Under the pieces are notes generated by a model. It ran no database searches, had not been told where the DNA came from, and worked only from the letters and a program-made list of their open reading frames with translations. Positions 1-24,179 of a stretch of 64,000 nt of DNA are shown one piece after another. The position numbers were made by a program, and so were the translations under genes. Source of the DNA: Escherichia coli. GTDB lineage: Bacteria; Pseudomonadota; Gammaproteobacteria; Enterobacterales; Enterobacteriaceae. Location: assembly GCF_041886205.1 (NCBI RefSeq), contig NZ_CP169029.1; one strand, 5' to 3'. The stretch's first letter is position 1; each line of letters starts with the position of its first letter.

Positions 1-1642
1 GACCTGTTTTCGGATTACGGTAACGATTTTCTGTGCCAAAACTCCCCATTCCGTGCCCCATCTGCAGGTTATTAATGCAGCCAAAGCTGGCGTTATCAAA
101 CAGCAGAATGGTGACCTTAATTCCCTCCTGTACGGCAGTTTGCAGCTCTGAGTGCAGCATCATGTACGAACCATCGCCTACCATGGCATACACCGGCTGC
201 TGAGGTTTTGCCAGCTTCGCACCAATAGCCGCTGCGACCTCATACCCCATGCAGGAGTAACCATACTCCAGATGGTAACTGTCAGGCGTTTTAACCTGCC
301 AGAGGCGTTGCAAATCCCCTGGCAGCGATCCGGCCGCCCCCACCACAATGGCGTTATCCTCAATATGCTGGTTAATGAGCCCCAACACCCGCGTCTGGGT
401 CAGGTGTGTGTTGAGCGTTTCACCGTATTCCATTAGCTGTGCATCAAGGTGCCCTGCCACTTCGGGAACGTCGTCAGGATGCCACTGGCGTTCCCACAGT
501 CGACAGCATTCATCGTGCCAAGCGGATTTCGCATGGGCAATCGCCTCCCCCCAGCCACTACGATAATCTTTCAGTGCGTGGGTCAACGCTGTCAGACCAG
601 TTCGGGCATCGGCAATGAGCGCGGTGGCATCCAGCTTCAAGGAGTCAAACTCAGCCACGTTCAGCAGCAGGAACTCGACGTCGGGATGAGAAAAGAGCGC
701 CTTAGAGCCGGTAGTAAAATCCGTCAGGCGCGTGCCGATGCCAATCACTAAGTCAGCCTGCGGCGCAAGCTGGTTGGCAGCCATTCCGCCCGTCACGCCC
801 ACCCCGCCCAGATTAAGCGGGTGGTCACTTACCAGCGCCCCCTTACCGGCCTGGGTTTCGGCAAACGGCAATTGCAGCACTTCAACAAATTCCCGTAACG
901 CCTCATGCGCACCGGAGTAACGCACGCCACCGCCGCACACCACCAGTGGACGGCGCTTGCGGGAAATCAATGCATGAGCCTGCGCCAGTCGCTGCGGGTC
1001 AGGCGGACGGCGTTCAATATGATGCACCCGACGCGCAAAGAAACTCAGGGGGTAATCCCAGGCCTCCCCCTGCACATCCTGAGGTAGGCAAATGGTCACC
1101 GCCCCTGTATTTGCGGGGTCAGTAAGCGTTCGCATCGCACTTAACATCGCGCTCATAAGCTGTTCAGGACGGTTGATGCGGTCCCAGTAGCGGGAAACCG
1201 GGCGGAAGCAATCGTTGGTACTGATGCTGAGATCGTGATACTGCTCGATCTGCTGCAACACGGGGTCAGGCTGGCGGCAGGCGTAGATATCCCCTGGCAG
1301 TAGCAGCAGTGGAATGCGGTTCGCCGTGGCCGTCGCTGCCGCCGTCACCATATTGGCAGCGCCAGGCCCAACGGATGAGGTGACAGCAAAAATACGCTGA
1401 CGGCGATGCTGTTTGGCGAATCCCGTCGCCATATGGGCAATCCCCTGCTCGTTACAGCCTTGCATCACCTGCAGATGACCAGGATCCTGCTCCAGCGCCT
1501 GGCCGATACCGAGCACGTTACCGTGCCCAAAGATCGTTGCCACGCCCTCCACAAAGGGCGTTTCTTTACCATCAACGCTAACATATTGTTGGTTAAGAAA
1601 TCTGACCAGAGCCTGGGCCATAGTCATACGTTCGGTTTGCAT
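1..1642 (-). CDS. iolD: ThDP-dependent IolD-like enzyme (3D-(3,5/4)-trihydroxycyclohexane-1,2-dione hydrolase family); partial, 3' end lies beyond window start
   Basis: Manual minus-strand translation from ATG at 1640-1642 gives [50 protein letters not shown]..., a ThDP-enzyme N-terminal domain; SD agggggtttt upstream; start abuts iolA stop. Confidence 0.65.
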
Positions 1643-1653
1643 AAAACCCCCTG

Positions 1654-3159
1654 TCAGCCCAGAGTCGGCATGGAGAACGCTGCACCTGTCTCCTGCTGCA
1701 TTTCCGGCCAGCGTGCAGTGATGGTTTTCATTCGGGTGTAGAAACGCACGCCATCGTTCCCGTGAACATTGAGCGCGCCAAAAATGGAACGTTTCCAGCC
1801 ACCGAAACAGTGGAATGCCATTGGCACCGGGATCGGCACGTTGACCCCCACCATACCCGCCTGCACCTCTTCACAAAAGCGGCGTGCGCAGCCACCGTCA
1901 CGGGTGAAAATGGCCGAGCCATTACCATATTCGTGTCGGTTAATCAGATCCACCGCGCTGGCGTAATCTGCTACGCGCACCACAGAAAGCACCGGTCCGA
2001 AAATTTCTTCTTTATAGATGGTCATCTCCGGGGTGACGTTATCGAACAGAGTCGGCCCAACGAAATAGCCCTGCTCGTGCCCTTTCACGCTGAGGCCACG
2101 CCCGTCCACACGCAGGTTAGCCCCCTGAGCTTCGCCACTGTCGATATAGCCCAACACTTTGCTGCGGTGTGCGGCGGAGATCAGCGGCCCCATCTCGTTT
2201 TCTGGCGTCTGGTTCAGGCCAGGTCCGACGCGCAGCGAAGCGATCTTTTTTTCCAGCCGGGCGCAGAGTTCATCAGCCGTTTTATCGCCAACCGCCACCA
2301 CCACGGAAAGCGCCATGCAGCGTTCTCCTGCCGCACCATAAGCTGCGCCCATTATGGCGTTTGTCGCCATATCCATATCGGCATCCGGCATTAAAATGCA
2401 GTGGTTTTTCGCACCGCCGAGCGCCTGACAGCGCTTACCGTGGGCGGACGCAGTCAGGTACATGTATTCGGCAATCGGTGTTGAACCGACAAAACTGACG
2501 GCCTGCACGCGCGGGTCGGTCAGGAGCACATCAACGGATTCTTTATCGCCCTGCACCACGTTGAATACGCCGTCCGGCAGGCCTGCCTCTTTCAGCAGTT
2601 TCGCCAGCGCGAGCGCCAGAGACGGATCTTTTTCCGACGGTTTCAGCACGAAGGTGTTGCCTGTCGCCAGAGCTATCGGGAACATCCACATTGGCACCAT
2701 CGCCGGGAAGTTAAACGGCGTGATCCCGGCGCAGACCCCGAGCGGCTGCATCAGTGAGTGGCTGTCGACACCTGTGCCAACGTTCGCAGAGTGTTCGCCT
2801 TTTTGCAGATGTGGGATGCCGCAGGCGAATTCTACCACTTCCAGACCACGGGTCAGTTCACCTACTGCATCTGAGAAGACCTTACCGTGTTCTTCACTGA
2901 TAATACGGGCCAGACGCACCATATTCTCTTCAAGCAACGCTTTGAAGCGGAACATCACACGCGCGCGCTTGAGTGGAGCAAAACGTGCCCACGCGGGAAA
3001 CGCCAACTGTGCTGCGGCAATCGCCTGTTCGGTTTCCTGTGCCGTACTCATCACCACCTGGCGAATCTGCTCGCCAGTGGCCGGGTTGAAGATAGCCTGA
3101 ATGCGCTGGCCTGAACCGGTGACACATTCGCCGTGAATAAAATTCGCTACCGTCTCCAT
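1654..3159 (-). CDS. iolA: CoA-acylating (methyl)malonate-semialdehyde dehydrogenase
   Basis: 501-aa ORF; ALDH-family hallmarks (VLKPSEKDP, catalytic Cys in GERCMALS); directly upstream of iolD-like gene. Confidence 0.8.
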
Positions 3160-3449
3160 CCTTAACCTCTCGCTGTTGATACGTGACTGTTACCTGAACG
3201 TTATGTACTGAACACTATATATGAAACAAATATTCCATTTTAAGTTGAAATAAAATAAATAATGATTATTGTGATCAAGGATGGATTTTTATGTGAACAG
3301 CCAGCATCACTGACTCAGCCTGAGCTATTAGGAGTTTCGGGCGAGGAAATGACTGAAGCTTCTGTTTCATTTTTGCTGCCAGGTGGATGGCCAACATTTA
3401 AAAGACGCGGTTTTGCGTTTAGAATCATGAGACTGGATAGGGGGATAAC

Positions 3450-4310
3450 ATGACGACAGCAACCAGCCTGAACGAACTACAAAAGCAAATCCGCGATCGC
3501 TACGATAGCCTGAGCAAAAGGCTGCAGCAGGTCTCCCGCTATGTACTGGATAATACGAACAGTGTCGCGTTTGATACGGTTGCGGTCATAGCCGAACGTG
3601 CCGATGTTCCACCCTCTACACTGATTCGTTTTGCCAATGCCTTTGACTTCACCGGCTTCAACGAAATGAAACAGTTATTTCGTATGCACCTGGTGGAGGA
3701 AACCGCCAGCTACAGCGATCGTGCGCGACTGTTCCGCGAAATGGAGAGCGAAGCCGTACCTGAAACGCCGCTCGATATTTTGCAGGAGTTCGCCAGTTCG
3801 AACTCGCAGGCGCTGCAGCAGTTGGCTGCCCGCGCCGAACCGGAGATGCTGGAGCACGCCGTACAACTACTGGCCTACGCCGACACCATTTACATCGCCG
3901 GATTACGCAGATCCTTTAGCATTGCTGCTTATCTTACCTATGCTTTAAGCCACCTAGAGTGCCGCCCTATTCTGCTTGACGGGATGGGCGGCATGCTGCG
4001 CGAACAGATCAGCCGTATTAAGGCGTGCGACATTGTGGTGTCGATCAGTTTCTCGCCGTACGCGGAAGAAACGGTGATGGTCAGCAAAACCGCCGCCAGC
4101 GTCGGCGCTCGGCAGATTGTGATTACGGATAGCCAGATCAGCCCACTGGCAACGTTCAGTGATCTCTGCTTTGTGGTGAAAGAGGCTCAGGTGGACGCAT
4201 TTCGGTCTCAGTCGGCAACATTGTGTCTGGTGCAGTCGTTAGTGGTCGCGCTAGCTTACCGTTTAGGAGATAAAAAACATAATAATACCCAGGAAAACAG
4301 TAACCAATAA
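3450..4310 (+). CDS. RpiR/MurR-family transcriptional regulator (IolR-like repressor candidate)
   Basis: 286-aa ORF, N-terminal HTH and C-terminal SIS-type sugar-phosphate-binding region; divergent from the iol catabolic genes. Confidence 0.75.
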   Translation: MTTATSLNELQKQIRDRYDSLSKRLQQVSRYVLDNTNSVAFDTVAVIAERADVPPSTLIRFANAFDFTGFNEMKQLFRMHLVEETASYSDRARLFREMESEAVPETPLDILQEFASSNSQALQQLAARAEPEMLEHAVQLLAYADTIYIAGLRRSFSIAAYLTYALSHLECRPILLDGMGGMLREQISRIKACDIVVSISFSPYAEETVMVSKTAASVGARQIVITDSQISPLATFSDLCFVVKEAQVDAFRSQSATLCLVQSLVVALAYRLGDKKHNNTQENSNQ

Positions 4311-4505
4311 TAACCAATGAACTCCTCCCCCGAGTCCATATAAGAGTAAATGATTCGGTGCCAGTAGCGATACAGACTTCAGATTGAATATCAACTGTAC
4401 TGCTATCTCCCTAAAAGGTCATGCCCCATGTGAGCGTACAACGAGAGCCTTAATCCTTAATAGCGAAGAAGATTTCTCTAGTAGGTGGTAATGTAACCCA
4501 GATAT

Positions 4506-4898
4506 AACGGCTTCTTTAAACAGTTTATTTACCATCGTTTTCTTACCTAGCAGGCGCTGAAGTTCTTTAATTTTATTCATGGCGGCAGCAAGTTCAGAGG
4601 CCGGAATACCCTGTTCTTCGGCTGTCACAGTAGTGAAGCTTCCTTCAAGGTAATGATACGCCAGAGAAATAACTGGCTGGCAGCCACACCGTGTTGCCGG
4701 GCAACAAGGGAGACCGTCATTCCCGGTTCAAAACTCTGCTGAACAATAGCGATCTTTTCCTGTGTAGTACGCCGTCTGCGTTTCTCCGGTCCTAAGACAT
4801 CAATCATCTGCTCTCCAATGACTAGTCTAAAAACTAGTATTAAGACTATCACTTATTTAAGTGATACTGGTTGTCTGGAGATTCAGGGGGCCAGTCTA
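4506..4898 (-). mobile_element. insC: IS2 remnant (IRL plus degenerate, frameshifted insC/orfA; insD deleted)
   Basis: Reverse complement of 4869-4898 reads TAGACTGGCCCCCTGAATCTCCAGACAACC (IS2 left IR); ORFs 4625..4852 and 4419..4628 together match IS2 InsC ([49 protein letters not shown]... [23 protein letters not shown]) with a frameshift; similarity stops near 4506. Confidence 0.75.
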
Positions 4899-4900
4899 TA

Positions 4901-5115
4901 CACTACCTCAGGTAGATGATGAGATCAGATACAGGGATCAACTGACGGTGAGCGCAGGCCCGCGAGTGCCCTGATTTAGCGCTGGTTTTGCTTTCCCATC
5001 GAAGGGCCCATACATCATCACGCCCGCGAAACAGTCGACAAAATAACGCAACTTTCTCATCCGTGGATAATACGGAAACGCACTGCACAGGACTCTGCGG
5101 TTTACGTCACCATTC
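4901..5115 (-). pseudogene. N-terminal fragment of an unidentified island gene, cut off at the IS2 end
   Basis: Minus-strand ORF ...VQCVSVLSTDEKVALFCRLFRGRDDVWALRWESKTSAKSGHSRAC... ends with a stop 3 nt before the IS2 IRL; second frame ORF 4938..5132 overlaps. Confidence 0.3.
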
Positions 5116-5328
5116 AATCCCATAAGCTTCAAGTTATGTTTGCCCTCAGTGCAGCTAATTCATCACTGTCAGATTTATGAACCATAGTCGTTACCTGTAT
5201 CCGATCCACTGAGGCACCACGGCAGAAATTCGGGTCCCCTACACTGATGACAAAGCCGCCCTCTTCTGCCTATTAACTCAAGCACCTCCCAACAACTTAC
5301 AGAAACTTAATCCTAATACAACTGTAAT

Positions 5329-5892
5329 TCAGTTGTGTCGTGGTCGGCCGCGGTTGCTTTTTTCGGGAAGCCTGCTACGGCCCAGAATAATACCGTGTTC
5401 TTTCTGATCCTGTTTAGCCAGATAGCTAAGGGCGTAACGTAAGTTGTCTACCGCGGACTTATCACTATAGTGCATCACGTGATCGATACGCACCGGGTAT
5501 TTGTCTTTAGCCCGGCAAAGGTGAAAGTAACCCTCCCCTTCCGTGATCTGCCTCCAGATATCTCCCAGTTGCCTGGATATCTGATAAGAGTTCTTGTGAC
5601 GTTGCCCATCCAGGTAGCCGACAAAATGAATATGAAGCCCTTTGTTTTGTGTATATTCCATTACCCAGTAATATCCCGCCAACATCGATTGGGTTTCGCT
5701 AAGTAAGCGGTATATTTCCATACACATACTGTGCTTACAGCCATGACCAAAACTGGGCGTGTCTTTCCTGTAGGCAAAATCAATTCTGAAAGGTAACAGT
5801 TTAGAAAAACGTTGAAACAGACCTTCCATGTGTTCATTCACGTCTTTCAGAATCATGAAGTCCATTTCGTAATTGGGATTAGCATTATACAT
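5329..5892 (-). CDS. YagK/YfjJ-family (inovirus Gp2-like) cryptic-prophage protein
   Basis: 187-aa ORF in same orientation as alpA and the split gene, matching CP4-57-type gene order (alpA - yfjI-like - yfjJ-like); family assignment from recalled sequence similarity only. Confidence 0.4.
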   Translation of the reverse strand: MYNANPNYEMDFMILKDVNEHMEGLFQRFSKLLPFRIDFAYRKDTPSFGHGCKHSMCMEIYRLLSETQSMLAGYYWVMEYTQNKGLHIHFVGYLDGQRHKNSYQISRQLGDIWRQITEGEGYFHLCRAKDKYPVRIDHVMHYSDKSAVDNLRYALSYLAKQDQKEHGIILGRSRLPEKSNRGRPRHN

Positions 5893-6858
5893 TTTATAGT
5901 CCTTACTTTATAAAACTGACAGGAAAGTGGAATTACATAAATACTGAGAGTACAGAAACGCCGTACCGCGGCATTAATAAACGAGGTAACCAGCAGCACA
6001 GACAACCTGATAAAACTGTTTCGTATTACCTCATTACAGTAATAGGGTAATGATTCAGAATACAGTAAGACTCTCTTAAACTGAGGACCAGAACGAATTA
6101 CAATAAAAAACACACCTCATATAATTGAGTTTAAGAAAGCACCATTCAATTACTTACAGGAAATAATCTGATCTTCACAAAAGTCAGCATTGAATAGCCA
6201 CAGGCAACATCGCTATTAGTATTGCCGTACCATTAAGTAAAAACAGAGACTCTGCAGAGAGAGCCTACAGATATTTAATCTCACAATAAGAAGATTATTT
6301 CATACAGAAAAGATTATATTTACCCATAAACTGTAACGGAGCTATAACGTACGAACTAAAGACAATATACTCTAATAGTGTTCTGGTACGTAACTAGTAT
6401 TAAATACAAACCAGACATACATTCAGTGGATTAACTTTCTCAATATTACGCTATAAGTGTAGTAACATAATTTACACATAACTAAACTCCATACACCACC
6501 ACACTGTAGTGTATGGAGATATATGTATTACGCACATACAGAATACTTAGCATAAAGAGGAGTGATATTACGATAGAAAGAGATAAGACAACATAACAGA
6601 TAACATAACTCCCATTAATAATACTAATTAACCTAAATTATTTATTGAACACGAAAACAATGAAGGCCCCACCTCACCTCAGACTAAAGCCGACAATATC
6701 CTGAGCAACACTCTATCCAATAGTAAATAGTGGTTACACCAGTTATATTTACTGACTGACCTGTACCAGAGTTTTCTAATACAACGCTGACATGGTAAAG
6801 ACATTAGTCTCCTCCGCAAGTAGCAGAGGAGACTATATGTACTCAACGATTAAGTCGT

Positions 6859-7191
6859 TCAGAGGTCAAAGTTAGGTGCGACACACAACGTTTTTCCCTC
6901 AATAACCGGTACAACTCTGTTTTGTTCATACAGTAAATCCAGTAACCAGTTGATTTTATCCTTTTTCCGGAAACGGTTCGGACCACGCTGTAAAATGTCA
7001 TTTTTTTTCATACAGAGGATCCCCTTCTCAATACAATAGCTTTTTATCCAGTTGAAAAGTTCAAGCTCCTCTGGAATGAGTCGCACAGGTACGGTCAGGG
7101 CAGAGTTGTCAAAAGTTAACGGATTAGACAACCGCACATACTCATTACCGTACCATATTGCTAATTCTCTCGCCATTTCTGCAGTGTAAGG
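6859..7191 (-). pseudogene. C-terminal part of island gene split by IS186 (YfjI/DUF3987-like, putative replication-associated)
   Basis: ORF 6859..7176 is in frame with ORF 8530..9660 once IS186 and one TSD copy are removed. Confidence 0.6.
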
Positions 7192-7202
7192 GGAAATATC
7201 CC

Positions 7203-8541
7203 CATAAGCGCTAACTTAAGGGTTGTGGTATTACGCCTGATATGATTTAACGTGCCGATGAATTACTCTCACGATAACTGGTCAGCAATTCTGGCCCATA
7301 TTGGTAAGCCCGAAGAACTGGATACTTCGGCACGTAATGCCGGGGCTCTAACCCGCCGCCGCGAAATTCGTGATGCTGCAACTCTGCTACGTCTGGGGCT
7401 GGCTTACGGCCCCGGGGGGATGTCATTACGTGAAGTCACTGCATGGGCTCAGCTCCATGACGTTGCAACATTATCTGACGTGGCTCTCCTGAAGCGGCTG
7501 CGGAATGCCGCCGACTGGTTTGGCATACTTGCCGCACAAACACTTGCTGTACGCGCCGCAGTTACGGGTTGTACAAGCGGAAAGAGATTGCGTCTTGTCG
7601 ATGGAACAGCAATCAGTGCGCCCGGGGGCGGCAGCGCTGAATGGCGACTACATATGGGATATGATCCTCATACCTGTCAGTTCACTGATTTTGAGCTAAC
7701 CGACAGCAGAGACGCTGAACGGCTGGACCGATTTGCGCAAACGGCAGACGAGATACGCATTGCTGACCGGGGATTCGGTTCGCGTCCCGAATGTATCCGC
7801 TCACTTGCTTTTGGAGAAGCTGATTATATCGTCCGGGTTCACTGGCGAGGATTGCGCTGGTTAACTGCAGAAGGAATGCGCTTTGACATGATGGGTTTTC
7901 TGCGCGGGCTGGATTGCGGTAAGAACGGTGAAACCACTGTAATGATAGGCAATTCAGGTAATAAAAAAGCCGGAGCTCCCTTTCCGGCACGTCTCATTGC
8001 CGTATCACTTCCTCCCGAAAAAGCATTAATCAGTAAAACCCGACTGCTCAGCGAGAATCGTCGAAAAGGACGAGTAGTTCAGGCGGAAACGCTGGAAGCA
8101 GCGGGCCATGTGCTATTGCTAACATCATTACCGGAAGATGAATATTCAGCAGAGCAAGTGGCTGATTGTTACCGTCTGCGATGGCAAATTGAACTGGCTT
8201 TTAAGCGGCTCAAAAGTTTGCTGCACCTGGATGCTTTGCGTGCAAAGGAACCTGAACTCGCGAAAGCGTGGATATTTGCTAATCTACTCGCCGCATTTTT
8301 AATTGACGACATAATCCAGCCATCGCTGGATTTCCCCCCCAGAAGTGCCGGATCCGAAAAGAAGAACTAACTCGTTGTGGAGAATAACAAAAATGGTCAT
8401 CTGGAGCTTACAGGTGGCCATTCGTGGGACAGTATCCCTGACAGCCTACAAAACGCAATTGAAGAACGCGAGGCATCGTCTTAACGAGGCACCGAGGCGT
8501 CGCATTCTTCAGATGGTTCAACCCTTAAGTTAGCGCTTATG
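7203..8541 (+). mobile_element. IS186 (IS4 family), complete 1339-bp copy
   Basis: 23-bp terminal inverted repeats CATAAGCGCTAACTTAAGGGTTG at 7203-7225 and 8519-8541 (rc); flanked by 11-bp direct duplication GGAAATATCCC at 7192-7202 and 8542-8552 in a GGGG-N6-CCCC target. Confidence 0.85.
7252..8370 (+). CDS. insL: IS186 transposase (DDE, IS4 family)
   Basis: 372-aa ORF with C-terminal YRLRWQIELAFKRLK motif typical of IS4-family transposases; lies between the IS186 inverted repeats. Confidence 0.85.
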   Translation: MPMNYSHDNWSAILAHIGKPEELDTSARNAGALTRRREIRDAATLLRLGLAYGPGGMSLREVTAWAQLHDVATLSDVALLKRLRNAADWFGILAAQTLAVRAAVTGCTSGKRLRLVDGTAISAPGGGSAEWRLHMGYDPHTCQFTDFELTDSRDAERLDRFAQTADEIRIADRGFGSRPECIRSLAFGEADYIVRVHWRGLRWLTAEGMRFDMMGFLRGLDCGKNGETTVMIGNSGNKKAGAPFPARLIAVSLPPEKALISKTRLLSENRRKGRVVQAETLEAAGHVLLLTSLPEDEYSAEQVADCYRLRWQIELAFKRLKSLLHLDALRAKEPELAKAWIFANLLAAFLIDDIIQPSLDFPPRSAGSEKKN

Positions 8542-9660
8542 GGAAATATCCCCCTCTTCACCGCTCGAATGGTAAATAAGTCCTGCCAGTCTTGCCATAT
8601 ACTCTGCATTTTTAGCAGCATATTCCCGGCAATGTCTTAAAGGCCCCAATCCCCCCAGCTTCGATTCCACATCATTGTAATAATCCGTCCAGATTCTGGC
8701 AGCCTGAGGAGAAAAGTGAAGGCAACGTCGTTCACCACTCATCGCCAGACTTTCATCAATAAGCTCATTGATCCTCTCTTCAAACAAATCCTGATACTGT
8801 GATGAATAATTATCTCCGGTTATTATCCTTGTCCCCTGCGTTGATGTTGGTTGACACATCAAAAACCTTGCATGATGTCCTGACGTTTTCACAATTTCTT
8901 TTTTTCGCGTACAAAAACCTTTGTGGTAAACATCAGGCTGAATCATCACCGATATCGTCAGTCTTGGCTCCTTCAAATTAATTCCGGGAGATGATTTCCT
9001 GTCGATGAAAAGAGAACCTCCATCCCACAAAGTGTTAATAATTCCCAGTTTACTCATGGCCCGGCTGTCAAAAATTACCCCCCCTTCACTGGATACAAGA
9101 GCAAAAGAGCGATTGCTGTCGGAATAATATTTTAACATTCCCTCTATCGTTGTCTCATTAAAAATTGTTCGACGTATCTGCGGCGGAACAGGAGGTTTAT
9201 TCAGATGCGTTTCAAGCTCTGATTCTGTTGCCTTGTAATCTTTACCGGCACGAATCTCTTTATGAAATTTTGATTCCAGCGCTTTTTGTTTTTGCTCCCA
9301 TATTTCCTTTTCTGTACTGTAATTCTCAACCAGTTTCGCGTATTCTTCCGCCAGGGCTTCATCCCTGAGATAAAATGCTTTCATAAACACTTTATCCACG
9401 GTCGTTTTCCTTTCACCGGAATCAGCCAGAATCAGAGAGTAAAGATTAACAGGCCCATGTAAATTTCCAGGTCTGCACACGTCAATCTGATTCTGACAGG
9501 CAATTGAGATCGCTGTTAATGCGGATGTTGCCACCATAGCCAAAGGTGCCTGTGTATTTTTTTGAGTTTCAATTATTGCATTTCTCACCAGCGGTGGTAG
9601 TGCATATATCGGATAAGGATTTTCTGGTGCAAGTAAGCACATAAAAGCCTCTCTTTTCAT
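8542..9660 (-). pseudogene. N-terminal part of island gene split by IS186 (YfjI/DUF3987-like); as-is ORF reads into the IS to a stop at 8530
   Basis: 376-aa ORF 8530..9660; last codons (EEGDISHKR) are encoded by TSD and IS186 IR; reconstructed uninterrupted gene would be 483 aa. Confidence 0.6.
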
Positions 9661-9674
9661 TAATGGGTTAGTAA

Positions 9675-9717
9675 AATAGCAGCAAATCCCGCTACAATAG
9701 CGAAAATAGCTGCTATT
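9675..9717 (-). promoter_or_regulatory. Nested palindrome (AATAGCAGC-N24-GCTGCTATT with inner CGCTA-CAA-TAGCG) in leader of the split gene; candidate operator
   Basis: Seen directly, 15-57 nt upstream of start codon at 9660; repeated in the duplicated copy at 10141-10180. Confidence 0.4.
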
Positions 9718-9860
9718 CAGACCTGATGCTCTGAGAAATACAGAGCATTTGTAGATCTGATGTTTAATAAACCGATAAGGTTAATTCAGTGAAGACTGTA
9801 TTATTCACCACGAAATATCATTCATATTTCTCATTCTTAATACCTCCAGAAATTATTTCA

Positions 9861-10190
9861 CTAATACCTTTCCCCCGGTCTTTTCCCTTTCTCCAGAACC
9901 ATAGTGTAAATATTAACGGCCCCACGTAAATTTCCGGGACTGCATACGTCAACCTGATTCTGACAGGCAATTGACATCGCTGTTAATACTGACATTGCAA
10001 CCAGAGTCAGAGGTACTTGTTTATTGTATTGAGCTTTAATTATTGCCTTCCCTATCATTGATGGTCATGCATATACTGAATACGGCATATCCGGTTTGAT
10101 GTAAGACATAAATGCTTCCTTTTTCGTAATACGTTTCGGTTATAGCAGCAATTACCGCTACAATAGCGACAATAGCTGCTCTTTCAACAA
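9861..10190 (-). repeat. Partial tandem duplication of the 5' end and leader of the split island gene (truncated paralogous ORF 9861..10058)
   Basis: 9861-10190 aligns to 9380-9730 at roughly 85% identity by eye; ORF 9861..10058 (MIGKAIIKAQYNKQVPLTLVAMSVLTAMSIACQNQVDVCSPGNL...) parallels the N-terminus of ORF 8530..9660. Confidence 0.6.
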
Positions 10191-10284
10191 TGAATGCTGG
10201 AAATTCTGTTTATCAATTAAACTTCTGGATAAATTGTTCTTATGCTTCTTTTTCCTCCTGAGGTGATCACGTGATGACAAAAAC

Positions 10285-10593
10285 TTATCTGCTCATGGTC
10301 ATATCTGAAGAAAGCGTATGTCGCACTTCGTCATTAACACCTTTGACTGCTGATCTGGCAGGTACAGTATGTAAAGTAAGCCATTCGTCAATAGCTGATG
10401 AACGCCAGCCCACAGAACCACTACCAAGACGTACCGGCCTGGGGAAGGTTGCATCGTAGTATTTCGATAACGGATTCATTTTTTCGTAAATTGTCGAACG
10501 AGATATACCTAACAATTGGCTCAGTTCAGGCATCCGTAAGATGCGTGAAGGAGTCCAGCAGTATCCGGATTGATCTGGCATTTTATCCCCCAT
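10285..10593 (-). CDS. alpA: AlpA-family phage/island HTH regulator (start codon uncertain; alternatives at 10581 or 10665)
   Basis: Contains ILRMPELSQLLGISRSTIYEKMNP...YDATFPRPVRLGSGSVGWRSSAIDEWL, matching the AlpA signature (YDATFP...SVGW...EIDEWL). Confidence 0.6.
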   Translation of the reverse strand: MGDKMPDQSGYCWTPSRILRMPELSQLLGISRSTIYEKMNPLSKYYDATFPRPVRLGSGSVGWRSSAIDEWLTLHTVPARSAVKGVNDEVRHTLSSDMTMSR

Positions 10594-10789
10594 AGTGTGG
10601 TGAACTGTCGTTACAGTTTGTATTCCCCGGGTAAATTTGTCTGCGTAAAAAAATGGGCTGAGCAAAAAGACAATAAATAATTAAAAATCAATACGATAGA
10701 AAACAACAGCATTATTGTTATTTTACTTTCACCTTATCGCTGTCGATTCTCATTATCATTCATTGGTAAAAAACAGCAAAAGAGGCCCT

Positions 10790-11553
10790 GGTAATGACTC
10801 CAGTCAGTAGTACAGTGTTTTCGACAAATGAACCAATGGCTTTTCGTGAATTTCCAGGGAGCGTGAAAAGCAAATCGTTTTCCGGGCTGGTCGTTTGATG
10901 TGAGTACGAAGTGTCAGATTGTTGCACTCAATGCGCCGGGTAAATATCTTGCCGACAAGATGCTTATCCTGTGGCATTTCTCTGGTATAACTGCTCCGGT
11001 TGTCTCTGGTTATCATGCCTGTGGAGAATGGCTTCAGGAGTTCCGGCAACTCACGACATGTTTCATCAGTGCGAGGACCAAAAGTGTAAGCCAGCACACC
11101 TCCAGATTTGGTGTTATACGCATACCAGTGCCACTGCTGACGAGCTTTGTTTTCGACAAAACTCCATTGTTCATCAAGTTCGCAGATAAGCGTCACATCG
11201 GCACTGGCGACTGGAGATGTGGTTACTTTGCGTGGTGAGCGTTTTATAAAGTGAGAATGACGGTGTTGATATCCACCTTCAGCGTTCTGGAACTATCGCG
11301 AACCCCGACTCCGTTATGAACCATTTCAACAATTTGCTCTTTAATGCCTGGTTTTCGGGTTTCGTAGATGTAATTCAGTTGAAATACACACGTTTGCAGG
11401 ATTAGCACTGGAAACGCTCATGATCTGAGGTGCTGTGATCATAATGGTACACTTTATAGGAATTACAGCTGGGAGAATGTACTGTAACTGTTGCCATATG
11501 GTCTCCAGATACCAATAGAATACCACATTAATCTATCGTCAGAAGGCATCACC
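10790..11553 (-). mobile_element. Degenerate IS1-family element (764 bp; insA frameshifted, insB N-terminal region degenerate)
   Basis: Terminus GGTAATGACTCC at 10790; ORF 10804..11196 matches IS1 InsB C-terminal half (QWHWYAYNTKSGGVLAYTFGPRTDETCREL...KTICFSRSLEIHEK); manual translation upstream gives InsA-like MATVTVHSPSCNSYKVY... then, after a frameshift, LNYIYETRKPGIKEQIVEMVHNGVGVRDSSRTLKVDINTVILTL; other terminus ...GCATCACC at 11546-11553. Confidence 0.65.
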
Positions 11554-11693
11554 GGGGCCTTCTGACATAATCTGTTAATACGTGTACTATTACCCTGTTC
11601 AGAAAATATTGATTCAAAAATGAAAACCAGTTAACAGAAAAGCAAAATGATATAATGTTAAAATTTTATATAGTGCAATAAAAGGAGAATGTT

Positions 11694-13511
11694 ATGTATA
11701 ATTTTATCACTATAATGTATGATGTCTTTTCATGTTTTGGTGTTCTGGCTAAAAACCAGAATACCCGTGACATCCGAAATATTAAAAATTTTTCCTCACA
11801 TCAATATTCACTGGGCGACATGTTTGATGAATTAATAAACATTATTGATAAAGAACAAGTATTGAGTACAGAACAACGAAAAGTTATATTTAGGAGATAT
11901 GAAGATCTCTATGTTAAGCTAATGCACTATTCTGTTTTTACAGACCAAACACATCAAATAATAAAACAAAAATATTTTAATGACATTGTACCAATGATTC
12001 TCGCACTCGACATCAGGAACACATATCGCCCGGATAATGAGATGGCATTTTACTATCATATTCATTCTTTTCTCACTCAGATACCGGATAATGAGGATGA
12101 TATATATCATGCTGCAAGGACATATCTGCGAAATTACGTTAAGTTATGTTTATCCGGATACACACCAGCGAATGCGCATTTCAAAGATATCTTTGATGGC
12201 GTATATGAATTCATTCGTAATATTCGCAAAAACAGTACACCAGGAAAAACAAAACTTATCGCAACTATCAACACATGCAAAGAAACCTGTAAACATCTGC
12301 TTTATTTAAGTAATGAAGACAAGGAAAAAATAATTTCTGACTTAGATAAAGTTCAGGTTGCATGTTATTATCTCACTATATTACTGGCTTTCGAAAGACG
12401 AACTTCATTAACAAGCACCCTGGCAACTTTATATAAAATGCTGATAAGCGAAAGAGAAGTTTCAGAATATGAATGCCAGTTATTATATTTAACCAACCCA
12501 ATAGATGTAATGAATATACTGAACAAATACATATATTACTTTCCTAATGAAAACTCACCATTTTATACACTGAAAATTGACAGTGCATTATCGTGGGATG
12601 CCATTGACGCAATACGAGACTATAGTATTTCTGATATTTATCTTTATCCTGAACAAAAAACAATAAATTGTGTCGTTGAGATTGAAAACATTGTCTTTGG
12701 CGGTTACATTTATACATTGAACAACGGCGTCACATTACAAAACATAGAAAACACTTTAAAAGATTCTTCATGCCATTATGTCTTAAATGGCTATACAGAA
12801 TTTGTTAACTGTTTGATACAACTTACTTCAGGAAAGACTGAAAGTGTTCATCGCACCATCAATAAACTGAACTATGAGAAATTACCTTTTGGATTTATCA
12901 TTGCCGCGTTTGCTATACTAAAGATAGCATTTAAAATAAAATTCAGTAAAAATCATGTAAATATCCGAGCATTATTAAATGACATCAATTATTTTATGAC
13001 TTATCAGGGCGAGTCCATTAACCTTATTTCACTGGATCACGAATACCCAGAGTCCTGTCTTCAAAATGACACAAACACATATTTATTAGGAAGAGTAATA
13101 TTTCTGTATAACTCAATGATTTATAAGTTCATAAACTGTCAGGAACATGAAACCAATAACATTCACTCAGCTATGATAAATAACCTATTACAGGAAGTTG
13201 ATATAGCCCTTGGTAAAATAAATAACATTATAGACAGCAGAAACATATCAGCCCCCCATGAACTGGCAAATATTCTTACCCGCGAAAAAATACTTACAAC
13301 ACGGGAAAAAAAAGGAAACCTGATAAGCCTGTTTGATGGATTCACTTTATTCCATTGTGTTGGAATGATAACCTTTCTTATCCATTATCTCAGAACACCT
13401 GAAGAAAAAGTTGAAAATATATTTATGTTATATGGTGCAGATAAAAACAATAAACTACGCAGAAGACTGATTTATGACGCACTAGGAATAATTCAGTCTC
13501 AGCAGGAGTGA
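11694..13511 (+). CDS. Hypothetical 605-aa protein, AT-rich cargo gene in the int-alpA hotspot; no recognisable catalytic motif
   Basis: Long uninterrupted ORF in very AT-rich DNA; SD aaaggaga 5 nt upstream of ATG; TATAAT at 11651-11656; convergent with integrase. Confidence 0.7.
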   Translation: MYNFITIMYDVFSCFGVLAKNQNTRDIRNIKNFSSHQYSLGDMFDELINIIDKEQVLSTEQRKVIFRRYEDLYVKLMHYSVFTDQTHQIIKQKYFNDIVPMILALDIRNTYRPDNEMAFYYHIHSFLTQIPDNEDDIYHAARTYLRNYVKLCLSGYTPANAHFKDIFDGVYEFIRNIRKNSTPGKTKLIATINTCKETCKHLLYLSNEDKEKIISDLDKVQVACYYLTILLAFERRTSLTSTLATLYKMLISEREVSEYECQLLYLTNPIDVMNILNKYIYYFPNENSPFYTLKIDSALSWDAIDAIRDYSISDIYLYPEQKTINCVVEIENIVFGGYIYTLNNGVTLQNIENTLKDSSCHYVLNGYTEFVNCLIQLTSGKTESVHRTINKLNYEKLPFGFIIAAFAILKIAFKIKFSKNHVNIRALLNDINYFMTYQGESINLISLDHEYPESCLQNDTNTYLLGRVIFLYNSMIYKFINCQEHETNNIHSAMINNLLQEVDIALGKINNIIDSRNISAPHELANILTREKILTTREKKGNLISLFDGFTLFHCVGMITFLIHYLRTPEEKVENIFMLYGADKNNKLRRRLIYDALGIIQSQQE

Positions 13512-13698
13512 AACGTTAAAACAGGCAAATTGTTTTTTATAAATAGGAGATTGTTGAGTAATCCCCTGTTTATAAAAATACGCTTTCCTGACGATCTGAT
13601 AATTATCAGCTCAATACATTTGACATAAAAGCGGTTCCTTAATTACTACTGCCACGATCACATATCAAATCATGATCGTACAATATACATTTTCACTA

Positions 13699-14901
13699 TT
13701 ATTTATTCACAATTTGAGACATCACATAATCCGCCCATGCCTGCATCATCGGTACACGCTGCTCCAGTAGATCAGTACGATGATATGCCGCCTCAACCTT
13801 ATTTTTCAGCGTATGAGCGAGCGCCCTTTCCGCCAGATCCCGCGAATACCCCTGTTCACTACACCAGTCCCTGAATGTTGAGCGAAAACCATGTGCCGTG
13901 GCAACTCGCCCCGGAATGTCACTGACGGCTTTCTTTTTACGCAGAAAACTTGTCAACACCATATCGGAAAGGATCTGCTGCTTTCTGGGTGAAGGGAACA
14001 CCAGTTCATCATGCAGGCCACGTATATTTTCCAGAATGTAAATAGCCTGCCGGGATAAAGGAACACGATGCTGTAGCCTGGCTTTCATTCTTTCTGCAGG
14101 TATAGTCCATACCCGCTTATGAAAATCAATTTCAGCCCAGCGCATTCCCCTGGCTTCGCCCGAGCGAGTTGCTGTAAGTATCACCATTAATAACAGTGCG
14201 CGGGTAACATTATAAGGTTCATCACTATACACACTGGTCGCCACAAAAAGCGGTAACTGCCTCCAGGGCATTGCTGGTTGGTGTTCATCACGTCCTCTTG
14301 TCTGCTGAGGAAGCAAATGGTCAACCACATCAACAGGATTTGCCACACAAAAACCGTGCGCCCATCCCCACTGCATAACAACATGAATGCGCTGTTTAAC
14401 CCGGCTTGCCGTTTCTGACAAGGTTAACCAGACTGGACGCAGTGTTTCTGCCACGTCCGCAGCCGTAATCGAATCCAGCGTTTTTGCTCCCAGTTGAGGA
14501 AACGCGTAATTCTCAAGCGTCGATAACCACTGCCTTACATGCTTTGGATTTTCCCATCCTGGAGACAATTCTGCATGTACACGCCTGGCTGCATCGGCAA
14601 ATGTTGGGATAACGACTTTCTCAGATTCAGCCTTTTTAATCTCCAGAGGATCATCACCTGCAGCAAGTTGCTCTCGCATTATCCGGGCAGTACGTGCAGC
14701 TTCAGCAATACTGACCTCTGGGTAAGTTCCCAATCCAGCATTACGTCTTTTTTGTGTCACCGGACTTACATAACGAAAAACCCATTTCCCCCGCCCCTTT
14801 ACTGAAGAAGGATGAAGGGTCAGTCCGGTAATTCCCCCATGGGGCAATGGTTTGTCATCAGGTTTGATATGTCTTGCTTTCGTATCCGTCAATACTGCCA
14901 T
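13699..14901 (-). CDS. int: Tyrosine site-specific integrase, P4/CP4-57 IntA-like
   Basis: 400-aa ORF; N-terminal LTDTKARHIKP...FRYVSP arm-binding-type region and C-terminal catalytic motifs (HGFRSTFRDW, LAH, Y in EAAYHR). Confidence 0.9.
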   Translation of the reverse strand: MAVLTDTKARHIKPDDKPLPHGGITGLTLHPSSVKGRGKWVFRYVSPVTQKRRNAGLGTYPEVSIAEAARTARIMREQLAAGDDPLEIKKAESEKVVIPTFADAARRVHAELSPGWENPKHVRQWLSTLENYAFPQLGAKTLDSITAADVAETLRPVWLTLSETASRVKQRIHVVMQWGWAHGFCVANPVDVVDHLLPQQTRGRDEHQPAMPWRQLPLFVATSVYSDEPYNVTRALLLMVILTATRSGEARGMRWAEIDFHKRVWTIPAERMKARLQHRVPLSRQAIYILENIRGLHDELVFPSPRKQQILSDMVLTSFLRKKKAVSDIPGRVATAHGFRSTFRDWCSEQGYSRDLAERALAHTLKNKVEAAYHRTDLLEQRVPMMQAWADYVMSQIVNK

Positions 14902-15044
14902 ACGCTAATTCCCGTCACTCTGGTATGCCATCCAGTATGCCATTAGTCTCTCGCTTCACTAAGAATACATTAGATAATATCGGACAACAAAAAGTGTAAT
15001 ACATTGTTTATAATGAAATTATATAACACCCCTGGATTAAGTCA

Positions 15045-15525
15045 GATTTATTTCAGGCGGTCCCCCTCACCGCCATATTTAAAGAAGAGCTCGTACGAAA
15101 GTACGGGCTTTTTTTTCGTATATTGCACACACCGGGGGGATGAGAATCCCCGACCGGGGGTCGACAACTGGCGGCAGCCAGTTGGACAGACCGTGAACGC
15201 AGTGAGCGGGCTGCCCGCAGGGCGAGCGAAGCGAGTCAATCCCCCCCTCACCGCCATATTTAAAGAAGAGCTCGTACGAAAGTACGGGCTTTTTTTTTCG
15301 TATATTGCACACACCGGGGGGATGAGAATCCCCGACCGGGGGTCGACAACTGGCGACAGCCAGTTGGACAGACCGTGAACGCAGTGAGCGGGCTGCCCGC
15401 AGGGCGAGCGAAGCGAGTCAATCCCCCCCTCACCGCCATATTTAAAGAAGAGCTCGTACGAAAGTACGGGCTTTTTTTCGTGTATTGCACACACCGGGGG
15501 GATGAGAATCCCCGACCGGGATACT
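15045..15525. repeat. Tandem direct repeat array, unit about 181 bp, about 2.7 copies
   Basis: Units begin near 15061, 15241 and 15421 with near-identical sequence; each has a terminator-like hairpin plus T-run (gagctcgtacgaaagtacgggcttttttt) and hairpins GGGGAT-GAGA-ATCCCC and CAACTGGC-N4-GCCAGTTG (loop differs between copies, stem conserved). Confidence 0.9.
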
Positions 15526-15528
15526 TAG

Positions 15529-16215
15529 TTAATGCAACGGTTCACTCTTTGTCGCCGCGACTAATGGGCGAATTTTGTCACGAGTCTCCCAGACCGGAGG
15601 GATTTCCTCCAATTTAGTGACAGAAGCTCGTACAAAAGGCACTCGTGCAAGAGTCATAATCGTATCCAACCAACGGTCACGAATAATGCGATCCGCCCTT
15701 TCATGACTCGGGTCATCCAGCTCAATAACACAGACTATTTTATTGTTCTTCTTTGAAACCAGAACATAATCCATTGCCATGCCATTATAAATTGCAAAGA
15801 AACGCTTTCTTTCTTCTTCGCTAAACTCAGGTTGTTCTGGATAGTTGAGCAAGCGCCCCAGAGAGACCTGGCAATGGATATGACAATAATGTCCAAACCA
15901 TTTCTCCAGATTATCGAAATACATTTTTTCACAACGCGTGATTAACCACTCTTTTCCTTCCAATAAAATACCTTCGGCAACCATTCCCTGAAATAACTCA
16001 TCTCGTTCTTGCCAACGAGAGTCACGATAGGTTTTCTGCGGTATATAGGTCCTTGTCGACGACTTAGCAGCAGGGGAAGTTGCAGATGAAGGGACTGGTT
16101 GCGATTTAGCGATGATTACCGATGAGGCAACTTTTCGGAGTGTCAATTTTCTGGCAACAGCAAAACCGGCGACAAATGCAATTGTCAAACAAGTTACAAA
16201 AGCCATAAAGCTCAT
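15529..16215 (-). CDS. Membrane-anchored protein with DUF2726-like (nuclease-fold) C-terminal domain
   Basis: 228-aa ORF: N-terminal hydrophobic helix, Ser/Pro-rich linker, C-terminal globular domain; family call from recalled similarity only. Confidence 0.45.
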   Translation of the reverse strand: MSFMAFVTCLTIAFVAGFAVARKLTLRKVASSVIIAKSQPVPSSATSPAAKSSTRTYIPQKTYRDSRWQERDELFQGMVAEGILLEGKEWLITRCEKMYFDNLEKWFGHYCHIHCQVSLGRLLNYPEQPEFSEEERKRFFAIYNGMAMDYVLVSKKNNKIVCVIELDDPSHERADRIIRDRWLDTIMTLARVPFVRASVTKLEEIPPVWETRDKIRPLVAATKSEPLH

Positions 16216-16761
16216 AATTAATTTTCACTTATCCATGTTGATTATATTTCATTACCAATGTTACTCGCTGAAGCGTGTTACATGCCAACAATGCAACGAT
16301 CAATATATAGTTAGTATCATGTTTTGATTATTACAACCATCCCTATTTTGCCATTGCAGCTTGCCTTCCACAAAAAAAATAACAACAAACAATATTAGCC
16401 AAAGAATTAATTAAGATTAACCTTGCATTTATAATATTATCCCTAAAGAATAAATCAGAGGAATATATTCGGTGTTAATCAGTCAGTCAAATTATGGCCC
16501 ATTGTTGATTAAACCTCATAAGCAAAATTGGCACCAGATCTCCTGTACAGGTTGAATGGCCGAAAAAAGATAGGCAGATGCTCGCTTTTTTGGCTTCTGG
16601 AAGAAAAACTCTCCGCACTGGCAGTATTACACTGGTCTGATGCTATGACGAAAAATGCCTGGTAAGAGTATCTAAACCAGACTCCAGTTCAGCTTATCAA
16701 CACGCTCAAAGTCGCCCCCCTGAACGCTAACCTGAAGTTAAAGTCTTTGCTGTTAATGAAA

Positions 16762-16790
16762 TAAAACAAAGCCCGGTTCGCCCGGGCTCT
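16762..16790 (-). terminator. Intrinsic terminator downstream of phoH
   Basis: GC hairpin AGCCCGG-TTCG-CCCGGGCT followed on the minus strand by a T-rich run. Confidence 0.5.
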
Positions 16791-16805
16791 GCACCGATAA
16801 CACAC

Positions 16806-17729
16806 TTAACTGTATGCATGCAGCGTACGTTGGCAAAGTGCCGAACGTACGCAATCCTCTTTACCGAACCGGACGATCCCAACCATTTCATCTTCTTCGA
16901 AACGTTCCAGCGCGTCACTTAATCCGGAGCACACGCCGCGAGGCAAATCGCATTGCGTGATATCACCGTTGACGATAACTGTCACGTTCTCCCCGAGGCG
17001 GGTTAAAAACATTTTCATTTGCGCGGCAGTCACATTCTGCGCCTCGTCAAGAATGACGACTGCATTTTCAAAGGTACGTCCACGCATATAGGCGAAAGGC
17101 GCAATTTCCACCTTCCCTATTTCCGGTCGCAGGCAGTACTGCATAAAGGAAGCCCCTAAGCGCCGGACCAGCACGTCGTAAACCGGGCGAAAATAGGGAG
17201 CAAACTTTTCTGCGATATCTCCAGGTAAGAAGCCAAGATCTTCATCGGCTTGCAGAACTGGACGGGTGACGATAATCCTGTCGACATCCTTATGTATCAG
17301 GGCCTCTGCCGCTTTTGCTGCGCTGATCCAGGTTTTTCCGCACCCGGCTTCGCCCGTGGCGAATATCAGCTGCTTACTCTCAATAGCCTTCAGATAGTGC
17401 AATTGCGCTTCATTACGCGCGAGGATGGGCGAAGTATCGCGACTGTCGCGGGCCATACCAATGGCTTCTACGCCGCTCATTTGCACAAGCGAGGTGACCG
17501 ATTCTTCTTCACGCTGCTTATGGCTGCGCGAATCCCGTCTCAGCACACGTTTTGCCTCGCGACGAGCTTTGATCACTGCTTTTTGTCTTCCCATGGAGAG
17601 CACCTTGAGTTGTTTGTATTCATCACACGCGCCGTTGGCAGCGCGATTATGCGCACGAACATCAGAGGGTTGGCTTCCTTGTAAGCCATAGTTTGCTTTT
17701 GGATAAAATGCCGAAAAACGGCTACGCAC
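16806..17729 (-). CDS. phoH: PhoH ATPase core ORF; N-terminal extension appears frameshifted, so the full gene would span 16806..17869
   Basis: ORF with Walker A GEAGCGKT; separate upstream ORF 17573..17869 (MVTSYTGHVLDNQ...) with SD ggag overlaps it in another frame. Confidence 0.8.
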   Translation of the reverse strand: MRSRFSAFYPKANYGLQGSQPSDVRAHNRAANGACDEYKQLKVLSMGRQKAVIKARREAKRVLRRDSRSHKQREEESVTSLVQMSGVEAIGMARDSRDTSPILARNEAQLHYLKAIESKQLIFATGEAGCGKTWISAAKAAEALIHKDVDRIIVTRPVLQADEDLGFLPGDIAEKFAPYFRPVYDVLVRRLGASFMQYCLRPEIGKVEIAPFAYMRGRTFENAVVILDEAQNVTAAQMKMFLTRLGENVTVIVNGDITQCDLPRGVCSGLSDALERFEEDEMVGIVRFGKEDCVRSALCQRTLHAYS

Positions 17730-18017
17730 ACCGTTTGCGGCGTCGGTAACACGAGTAAAGAGAGGAAGTGAGAAAAATACAGAGTGACGAAGTTGCTACC
17801 GGAGGAGAAAACTCCGCGAGTGGTGGCGCGTTGATTATCTAAAACATGTCCAGTATAGGACGTTACCATCCGCGATCTCCATAGTGACTGACTATCACTG
17901 CCGGGAACTTCCGCTGCTACTTAATAAGTACAACAGATCTCGCATTTATTGCAACAATATATTTACTTATATTTAACTATAAAACACCATTTTAGTGACA
18001 TTAGTTTCTACTGGAAA

Positions 18018-18036
18018 GATGACAGAGTGATGACAG
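18018..18036 (-). promoter_or_regulatory. Pho box (PhoB site) in phoH promoter
   Basis: Reverse complement reads CTGTCATCACTCTGTCATC, two tandem CTGTCAT half-sites, about 150 nt upstream of the ATG at 17869. Confidence 0.6.
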
Positions 18037-18070
18037 TGATGAAAAAAGCTGTGTGCTTTCAGCAGGATTT

Positions 18071-18400
18071 GCATCAGGCATCAGTGCACGATCGCCGGAT
18101 GCGGCGTAAACGCCTTATCCAGCCTACCAAACCCGCACCGATTATAGGCATGATAAGACGCGCAAGCGTCGCATCAGGCATCAGTGCACGATCGCCGGAT
18201 GCGGCGTAAACGCCTTATCCAGCCTACCAAACCCGCACCGATTGTAGGCATGATAAGACGCGCAAGCGTCGCATCAGGCATCAGCGCACGAACGCCGGAT
18301 GCGGCATCAACGCCTTATCCCGCCTACCGAACCCGCACCGATTGTAGGCATGATAAGACGCGCAAGCGTCGCATCAGGCATCAGCGCACGAATGCCTTAT
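18071..18400. repeat. BIME/REP array (three units of about 110 bp containing GCCGGATGCGGCGTAAACGCCTTATCC)
   Basis: Three near-identical copies of canonical REP palindromes between phoH promoter and efeB. Confidence 0.85.
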
Positions 18401-18413
18401 TCGCCTAAAAACA

Positions 18414-19685: not shown

Positions 19686-19690
19686 AACGC

Positions 19691-20818: not shown

Positions 20819-20875
20819 GACGAGACTATCCCTTTAAAGTATGTTGTAACTAAGCAAGAGTTTGCGTCGTATTTG

Positions 20876-21706: not shown

Positions 21707-21762
21707 GCCACCCACCCTTAAACGTTTTTCTGAGTCAATCTATGCAAAGAAAAGTAAATCGC

Positions 21763-21783
21763 AGTGATAGCGATTATCATTAC
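21763..21783 (-). promoter_or_regulatory. Candidate Fur box upstream of efeU
   Basis: TGATAGCGATTATCATTA resembles the GATAATGATAATCATTATC consensus; about 60 nt upstream of efeU start. Confidence 0.4.
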
Positions 21784-22248
21784 GGCAAAGAAAAACACAA
21801 GCGGAATGTTTATAAAATGATGTTGGAATGTAAACAAAGAGAGGTAATGCCAGGGGATATAAACGATTATTCCAGGGTAGAAAGATGGGATTGTTTGCAA
21901 AGAACCATGTGTTCTTGCCGGATGCCGCGTAAACGCCATATCCAGCCGACAAAACTGTCCAGACTCAATGCATCAGAGCTTCCATGTAAAACTGATAAGC
22001 GGGTGTATCAAGCAATTTCGTCCATCCGCGATTATCAAATCTAACTTTTTGCCCGGAACATAATAACAGCTCGGGTGTTGGTGGCGTCAAAATCGCTGAA
22101 GCGTTCCCCTAAGGCCGGGACAGCAGGGGGCGGCGGCGATTGGCCGCCCCCTGCGCGCTCCCTGCACCATTCAATTTATATGGCGAGGCACATTAAGGGA
22201 GCGCAACCCGCTGCTGAAGCCAAACAAAACCGCCGCAGGCTAAGTCCC

Positions 22249-23757
<1,509 letters not shown>

Positions 23758-23939
23758 CTAAAGTCTCCAAAAAATTATTATCGGCAATGTCGAAACTTGC
23801 CGTTATATCTGCCACCGGAACGGGGTAACAGAGTTTATGTTTTACCAGGGCGACCGTATCCTGCCGGAAGCGCTGGTTATTCACAATCGATTTAACACAC
23901 CATTTACATTAAATTTTAGTGCTCAGCGACACTATTTTT

Positions 23940-24155: not shown

Positions 24156-24179
24156 TTTCAGAACAACAGGAGTAATGGC

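Follow-up and report, generated by a model that had tools for sequence, protein, structure and literature searches.

The window, the whole 64-kb stretch of Escherichia coli DNA analysed here, carries near its left end the join between an inositol (iol) gene cluster and an integrative island. The iol cluster ends with a MurR/RpiR regulator gene (nt 3450–4310, + strand; ORF list and RefSeq annotation of strains ZYB39 and ATCC 8739) that now lies beside the island. It is followed by a spacer (nt 4311–4505) that is not part of IS2 and travels with the iol cluster and its insertion sequence (IS) remnant, being identical and contiguous in ATCC 8739 and also present in NCTC10444. The next feature is a left-end stub of an IS2-like element (IS3 family; nt 4506–4898, − strand), recognised by BLASTN and NCBIfam, and beyond it are 12 nt (TGAGGTAGTGTA; nt 4899–4910, − strand) joined to a pseudogene relic of iee (nt 4911–5185, − strand). 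The 12 nt do not belong to iee, and the same junction is found in IS-free strains. The relic comprises codons 1–116 of the gene for the 786-aa IEE protein, as judged from Pfam, BLASTP, TBLASTN and RefSeq annotation. Immediately upstream of iee is an intact backbone gene of the inovirus Gp2 or YagK-YfjJ family (nt 5329–5892, − strand; RefSeq annotation of identical loci and a weak Pfam REP_ORF2-G2P match). The initial annotation placed the truncated gene and the IS remnant at nt 4419–5132. The lower bound is 87 nt too low, as the IS2 similarity ends at nt 4506 and nt 4419–4505 are iol flank, and the upper bound stops short of the true start codon of the relic, an ATG at nt 5185–5183.

The iee gene and its relic

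The intact gene corresponding to the fragment was reached through DNA matches in complete E. coli genomes. A protein search of a word-based index with the 94-aa repaired fragment had returned short fragments only, and NCBIfam gave no more than a weak, sub-threshold PrimPol_Msp match. In strains 1070/13, EDL933 and M9, a homologue lies directly after the Gp2/YagK-YfjJ-family gene and specifies a protein of 786–788 aa. Pfam assigns to the intact protein an AEP-TOTE domain (PF22548, residues 49–277, 329 bits) and an SF2 helicase (ResIII/DEAD/Helicase_C, residues 423–738), and among solved structures the protein comes closest to a PrimPol chain (7nqd) and to XPB/RadD helicases. The O157:H7 IS-excision enhancer, IEE, was reportedly described by Kusumoto and colleagues in 2011. 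In O157:H7 strain EDL933 it is a 786-aa protein with an AEP domain (residues 1–290) and an SF2 helicase (residues 291–786), and its catalytic residues are D142, D144, H178 and D216, along with S171, Q175 and G176 (Calvo et al. 2023, PMC9943667). All of these residues occur at the positions published for IEE (PMC9943667) in the 786-aa EDL933 homologue found here (locus L014, nt 9001–11361), in which K451 falls in the Walker A motif. On the basis of length, strain, architecture and residue numbering, the intact gene behind the fragment is identified as iee, which specifies the E. coli IS-excision enhancer, in which an AEP primase-polymerase and an SF2 helicase are fused; the published IEE accessions NP_309332.1 and AAG55274.1 were absent from the cluster look-up of the intact protein.

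Published work describes IEE as having a Mn-dependent, error-prone polymerase activity and joining ends via microhomologies of at least 4 bp. Together with an active transposase, it stimulates the excision of IS3-, IS1- and IS30-family elements and also IS-associated deletions (PMC9943667; preprint). The gene (ECs1305) is carried in an SpLE1-like integrative element (preprint). Across the E. coli complete-genome collection, RefSeq names the protein 'TOTE conflict system AEP domain-containing protein', 'DEAD/DEAH box helicase family protein' or 'helicase'; the name IS-excision enhancer is not used. The TOTE label obscures that the gene has been characterised by experiment and influences IS dynamics in pathogenic E. 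coli, and the main practical value of the present assignment is the right name.

While the initial annotation considered the protein family not placeable, the fragment can be identified as iee. The repaired translation of the relic matches AEP-TOTE (PF22548; E = 1.8e-8, 34.7 bits against a cut-off of 27 bits), of which it spans the first ~37 of 230 profile positions, and aligns by BLASTP with residues 1–116 of the intact 786-aa protein (E = 3e-43). TBLASTN with the EDL933 IEE covers window nt 5185–5141 and 5133–4912 (E = 2.8e-34). The peptide quoted initially corresponds to a 61-aa ORF at nt 4903–5088. It was correctly described as coming from a truncated N-terminal fragment, but this does not lie directly against the inverted repeat of the IS: iee homology ends after ...ATCATCTACC at nt 4911, 12 bp away. 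RefSeq calls the identical DNA in strains ZYB39, C10 and C11 (equivalent to window nt 4912–5185) a pseudogene, with a frameshift, an internal stop and no C-terminus.

An alignment (A1) with intact iee reveals several lesions, all given here for the − strand. A 17-nt deletion (nt 5138/5139) shifts the reading frame after codon 15, and a premature TGA (nt 5107–5109, also read directly in the sequence) stands where intact iee has CGA (Arg32). A further, in-frame deletion of 57 nt lies between the direct repeats CTGCGCTAAC and CTGCGCTCAC, which match at 9 of 10 positions; it has removed IEE residues ~83–101 and left one repeat copy, CTGCGCTCAC, at nt 4948–4957 (alignment A1 and protein alignment). 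The 17-nt deletion is found in all of the relics examined (BA22372, SLK172, CH4784, Nissle) but not in the intact gene of 1070/13. The 57-nt deletion was found only in the window and in loci of the C10/C11/ZYB39 type; relics 97% identical to that of the window do not carry it, as they span 346 nt compared to 290 nt of the query. At the DNA level, the relic lineage is ~15% diverged from the intact O157-type allele.

Approximately 15% of iee is left in the window. Catalytic motifs A, B and C (D142, D144, H178, D216) lie beyond the break at codon 116 and are missing from the relic, and no homology to IEE residues beyond 116, including the helicase (residues 291–786, with K451), was found anywhere in the 64-kb window, which holds no other copy of iee. 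Compared with the IEE of O157:H7, the relic shares homology to residues 1–116, the slot after Gp2 and the same backbone (EDL933), but differs by the frameshift, the stop codon, the 57-nt deletion and the missing AEP motifs and helicase. Since it has no catalytic residue and no part of the helicase, the relic is predicted to be dead and incapable of any IEE function; with the gene destroyed, IS-excision-stimulating activity is likewise predicted to be absent. The gene itself is known, and RefSeq already marks this dead form of it as a pseudogene; no new biology is implied.

Such relics are common. With the relic DNA as query, 85–100% identical matches were found in 1810 of 5426 complete E. coli genomes, and this homologous DNA, together with the Pfam match, contradicts the view that the fragment could be a chance ORF without homologues. 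The intact gene as query matched 1731 of the 5426 genomes, with 684 covering at least 80% of the gene. Some 1050 genomes carry 5′ iee relics only, and so exceed the 684 with a near-full-length copy. Judged from evenly spaced rows of the match ranking, the relics fall into classes that end near nt 250, nt 348–351 and nt 911. Those ending at ~350 are followed either by a second Gp2 pseudogene or by a gene for a 1652-aa AAA-domain protein. The latter arrangement is seen in BA22372 (L007, nt 9536–15927) and also in L017 and L018, where a ~340-bp iee relic precedes the 1652-aa protein and a 478-aa hypothetical protein. The breakpoint of the BA22372 class is within ~3 nt of that in the window.

Neutral decay and island mobility adequately explain both the abundance of relics and their shared ancestry. 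Relics outnumber intact genes, one old frameshift is common to all of them, their breakpoints are few and recurrent, and the cargo beyond is unrelated, and for these reasons two other possibilities were considered: that loss of iee has been repeatedly favoured (e.g. by stabilising IS-borne or IS-flanked genes), or that the ~350-bp 5′ stub is a homology anchor for cargo swaps in SpLE1-like islands. Either would make the relic more than neutral debris, and we regard this as unlikely. A related proposal is that the relic itself has been kept for a putative function, as a small N-terminal peptide (the 61-aa ORF), a regulatory element or a homology anchor for cargo exchange. The excess of 5′ relics over genes at least 80% complete would fit this proposal, as would the presence of at least two unrelated kinds of cargo after relics ending at nt ~348–351, but frameshifts, stops and internal deletions differ among the relics, which is a pattern of neutral decay, and what survives of the AEP-TOTE domain includes no catalytic motif. 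Since descent from one ancestor with the 17-nt deletion, combined with island mobility, can explain how numerous the relics are, a retained function is considered very unlikely, and neutral decay of a dead gene is the preferred reading.

The junction and the IS2-like stub

According to the initial annotation, IS2 truncates the island gene. The break at nt 4911/4910 and the next 12 nt (TGAGGTAGTGTA) are, however, also present in strains CH4784, ETEC4073, M719, SLK172 and CRE1540, and past TGAGGTAGTGTA these strains run on as CAATATGCCGATATCG..., without an IS at the position seen in the window. For CH4784, ETEC4073 and M719, at least 57 nt without an IS follow the shared junction. The same IS-free junction occurs in loci L003, L004, L005, L016 and L019, and a 141-nt IS-free probe spanning it is matched over at least 80% of its length in 93 complete E. 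coli genomes. No IS footprint or duplication was seen where TGAGGTAGTGTA meets CAATATG. Where the flank survives (CH4784, ETEC4073, SLK172, CRE1540), the DNA past the junction leads to a second Gp2-family pseudogene. That of CH4784 was considered as a possible duplicate of the Gp2 gene in the window, and rejected as no similarity was detected by BLASTN or TBLASTN. Since the same break and 12 nt exist in genomes with no IS at that spot, comparison of these sequences indicates that the IS did not cut iee and that the truncation is the older event. The locus is a worked example of how an IS beside a truncated gene does not prove that the IS made the truncation.

Two other strains carry IS2-like elements at the locus. 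In SLK172, 69 nt separate the break from the element beyond it, whose clean 5-bp duplication of the target (ATCTC) points to an independent, simple insertion into an already truncated locus. The C10 element has the same left junction as the window but no target duplication (GTGTA versus AGGCA), and its flanks must therefore have been rearranged. The junction shared by the window and C10 could represent either a fresh insertion or an SLK172-like state from which 57 nt beside the IS were deleted.

The stub itself aligns by BLASTN with nt 1–394 of IS2A of strain K-12 (window nt 4898→4506, − strand; 90.6% identity, 3 gaps). Its left inverted repeat tip, TAGACTGGCCCCCTGAATCTCC, begins at nt 4898, and the first 50 nt match IS2A. 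The orfA (insC) gene starts with an ATG at nt 4807–4805 and is without its 3′ end. After repair, OrfA matches the NCBIfam model 'IS2 repressor TnpA' over positions 1–101 of 121 (E = 5.9e-51), the reading frame being shifted at nt 4657/4658 and cut at nt 4506. The left inverted repeat of the IS2 family and the frameshifted insC had both been recognised initially, and these matches agree. No orfB, right inverted repeat, IS2 nt 395–1331 or other IS2-like DNA was found in the 64-kb window. The stub shares with IS2 of K-12 the left inverted repeat and a collinear orfA (InsC/TnpA), but differs from it in identity and in being without orfB, the right inverted repeat and a target duplication; because these are missing, it is predicted that the stub cannot transpose.

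A multiple alignment with segment-by-segment mismatch counts showed that the two parts of the stub have different origins. Between nt 4661 and 4898, there are no differences in 238 nt from the IS of C10, a full-length but decayed element 94.5% identical to IS2, whereas nt 4506–4660 differ from it by 31 mismatches and 3 gaps in 155 nt. The comparison with ATCC 8739 gives the opposite pattern, with 33 mismatches and 1 gap in 198 nt for window nt 4674–4871 but only 1 mismatch in 374 nt for nt 4300–4673. Two diverged IS2-like copies have contributed to the stub, a chimera with a crossover interval, inferred from single representative strains, at nt 4661–4673 (− strand; mismatch counts against C10 and ATCC 8739), and this explains why its identity to IS2 is only 90.6%. 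The chimera is carried only by ZYB39, ZYB62 and the window.

One parent of the chimera is the IS remnant linked to the iol cluster. The 1-nt deletion that frameshifts orfA (nt 4657/4658, − strand) is inherited from this remnant, the gap being shared with ATCC 8739 and NCTC10444 but not with C10, SLK172 or IS2. The iol-linked remnant of the ATCC 8739 type is likewise frameshifted by this 1-nt deletion and truncated at IS2 nt 394, and beyond it ATCC 8739 has fec genes whereas NCTC10444 has fimbrial genes. The initial annotation had concluded that the rest of IS2 and adjacent DNA were deleted. They were not deleted in place, because the stub is recombinant with an older, already truncated iol remnant, to which the end at nt 4506 and the frameshift belong. 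The simplest reading of the sequences is that homologous recombination between the relic-side IS and the iol-linked remnant would have brought the iol cluster and the island together. The locus also exemplifies how, through recombination of diverged IS copies, a metabolic cluster (iol) can become fused to an integrative island backbone.

A decayed IS2-like orfA remnant always follows the iol MurR/RpiR gene (window nt 4300–4871; L011 of ATCC 8739, nt 7001–7571; L012 of NCTC10444, nt 7001–7590). The DNA beyond it varies, and may be a fec operon, a fimbrial operon or the island of the window. Possibly the iol cluster is a mobile module, and the remnant marks an edge of it that is prone to recombination.

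A different account is that the island gene was severed by insertion of IS2, and that a later deletion in place took away the rest of IS2 and the adjacent DNA. Just 12 bp separate the IS end from the gene fragment, the IS is internally truncated at nt 4506, and the full-length IS of C10, with no target duplication, testifies to some IS-associated rearrangement. Against this stand the 93 genomes that have the iee break and the next 12 nt without an IS at that spot, the sharing of the IS truncation and frameshift with iol-linked remnants in unrelated contexts, and the abrupt switch of the stub at nt 4661–4673 from C10-identical to ATCC 8739-like sequence. Cutting by IS2 followed by deletion in place is highly improbable.

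The explanation we favour, and hold to be very probable as a whole, is that the locus consists of a dead iee relic and a recombinant IS stub, that the IS did not cut the gene, and that nothing at the locus is functional. The order of events given here is inferred, and is built on features that were observed directly, namely the iee homology, the lesions, the chimera and the occurrence of the junction without an IS in other genomes. Originally, iee would have stood directly after the Gp2/YfjJ-family gene in an island backbone of integrase, hypothetical protein, AlpA-like HTH, DUF3987/YfjI, Gp2 and iee. An old deletion of 17 nt would then have shifted the iee frame, after which a break at codon ~116 would have fused what was left of the gene to the upstream region of a second Gp2-family gene. 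An IS2-like element presumably arrived 12 bp past this junction, as in C10 and C11, and in the same lineage the 57-nt deletion between direct repeats would have occurred in the relic. Finally, a crossover at nt 4661–4673 between the relic-side IS and the older iol-linked remnant would have produced the chimeric stub and brought the iol cluster to its position beside the island.

Island context and related systems

The island backbone in the window consists of an integrase, a hypothetical protein, an IS1 remnant, an HTH protein, DUF3987/YfjI, Gp2 and the iee relic, in agreement with C10 and with the left end of the iee island in EDL933. Alignment to intact islands, which had been suggested as a check on the fragment, placed iee in the same slot, as the order Gp2 then iee is found in EDL933, 1070/13 and M9. 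A tRNA scan found no tRNA gene in the window, and consequently no tRNA attachment site is visible there.

By analogy with CP4-57 of K-12, the fragment was initially suggested to be the start of the gene following yfjJ. CP4-57 has a similar backbone logic (integrase, AlpA, YfjI and a YfjJ-family gene, then variable cargo), and the slot after a YfjJ/Gp2-family gene is indeed where the relic lies. The gene content of the slot differs, however, since in CP4-57 yfjJ is followed by abpB (yfjK) and abpA (yfjL), on the opposite strand from yfjJ. The yfjK product (AbpB) was rejected as a homologue of IEE, as its likeness is confined to the P-loop helicase region (E = 0.008). The Gp2-family protein of the window shows remote similarity to YfjJ of K-12 (E = 2e-4). 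As far as the sequences indicate, the CP4-57 analogy holds by position only.

IEE also shares a domain family with TOTE systems and CRISPR-associated PrimPols (PF22548; PADLOC PDLC01465; PDB 7nqd). TOTE stands for TPR, OB, TBP and Effector, according to the part of PMC12458937 that cites Aravind, Iyer & Burroughs 2022, and a literature search on TOTE returned nothing on E. coli. In E. coli, by contrast, the gene is a lone AEP-helicase fusion with no TPR, OB, TBP, effector or cas neighbours. Membership of the fragment in a TOTE conflict or anti-phage system, suggested by its RefSeq product name, is hardly credible: the Pfam AEP-TOTE domain, the PADLOC model of a cas-associated PrimPol (E = 1e-143 with the intact protein) and the ShosTA defence pair neighbouring iee in M9 point that way, but no TPR, OB-fold, TBP or effector gene is annotated beside the intact gene in 1070/13, EDL933 or M9, the experimentally shown activity of the protein is IS-excision enhancement (PMC9943667; preprint), and the name derives from the domain family only.

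The slot after iee varies among strains. In M9 (L015, nt 11385–12901), homologues of ShosT and ShosA lie directly downstream of the intact iee, on the opposite strand (PADLOC, E = 2e-50 and 4e-103), and the slot can hold anti-phage cargo. ETEC4073 (L016, nt 4331–6563) has a tandem series consisting of an intact Gp2/YagK-YfjJ gene, the iee relic, a frameshifted Gp2/YagK-YfjJ gene and another intact one, followed by IS2, which suggests that islands accumulated in tandem or recombined at the slot.

An IS4-family element of 1337 bp (nt 7204–8540), presumably IS186, splits the DUF3987/YfjI gene of the island in the window into two pieces (nt 6859–7176 and 8530–9660, − strand). It has a 372-aa transposase ORF (nt 7252–8370), a target of ~13 bp is apparently duplicated, and the insertion is absent from C10 and ZYB39. 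The window as a whole is a mosaic. Its first part (nt 1–7203) is 99.5% identical to ZYB39, where the island is located at thrW/proA, and nt 8541–26000 are 99.9% identical to C10, where the island lies beside phoH, efeUOB and putP.
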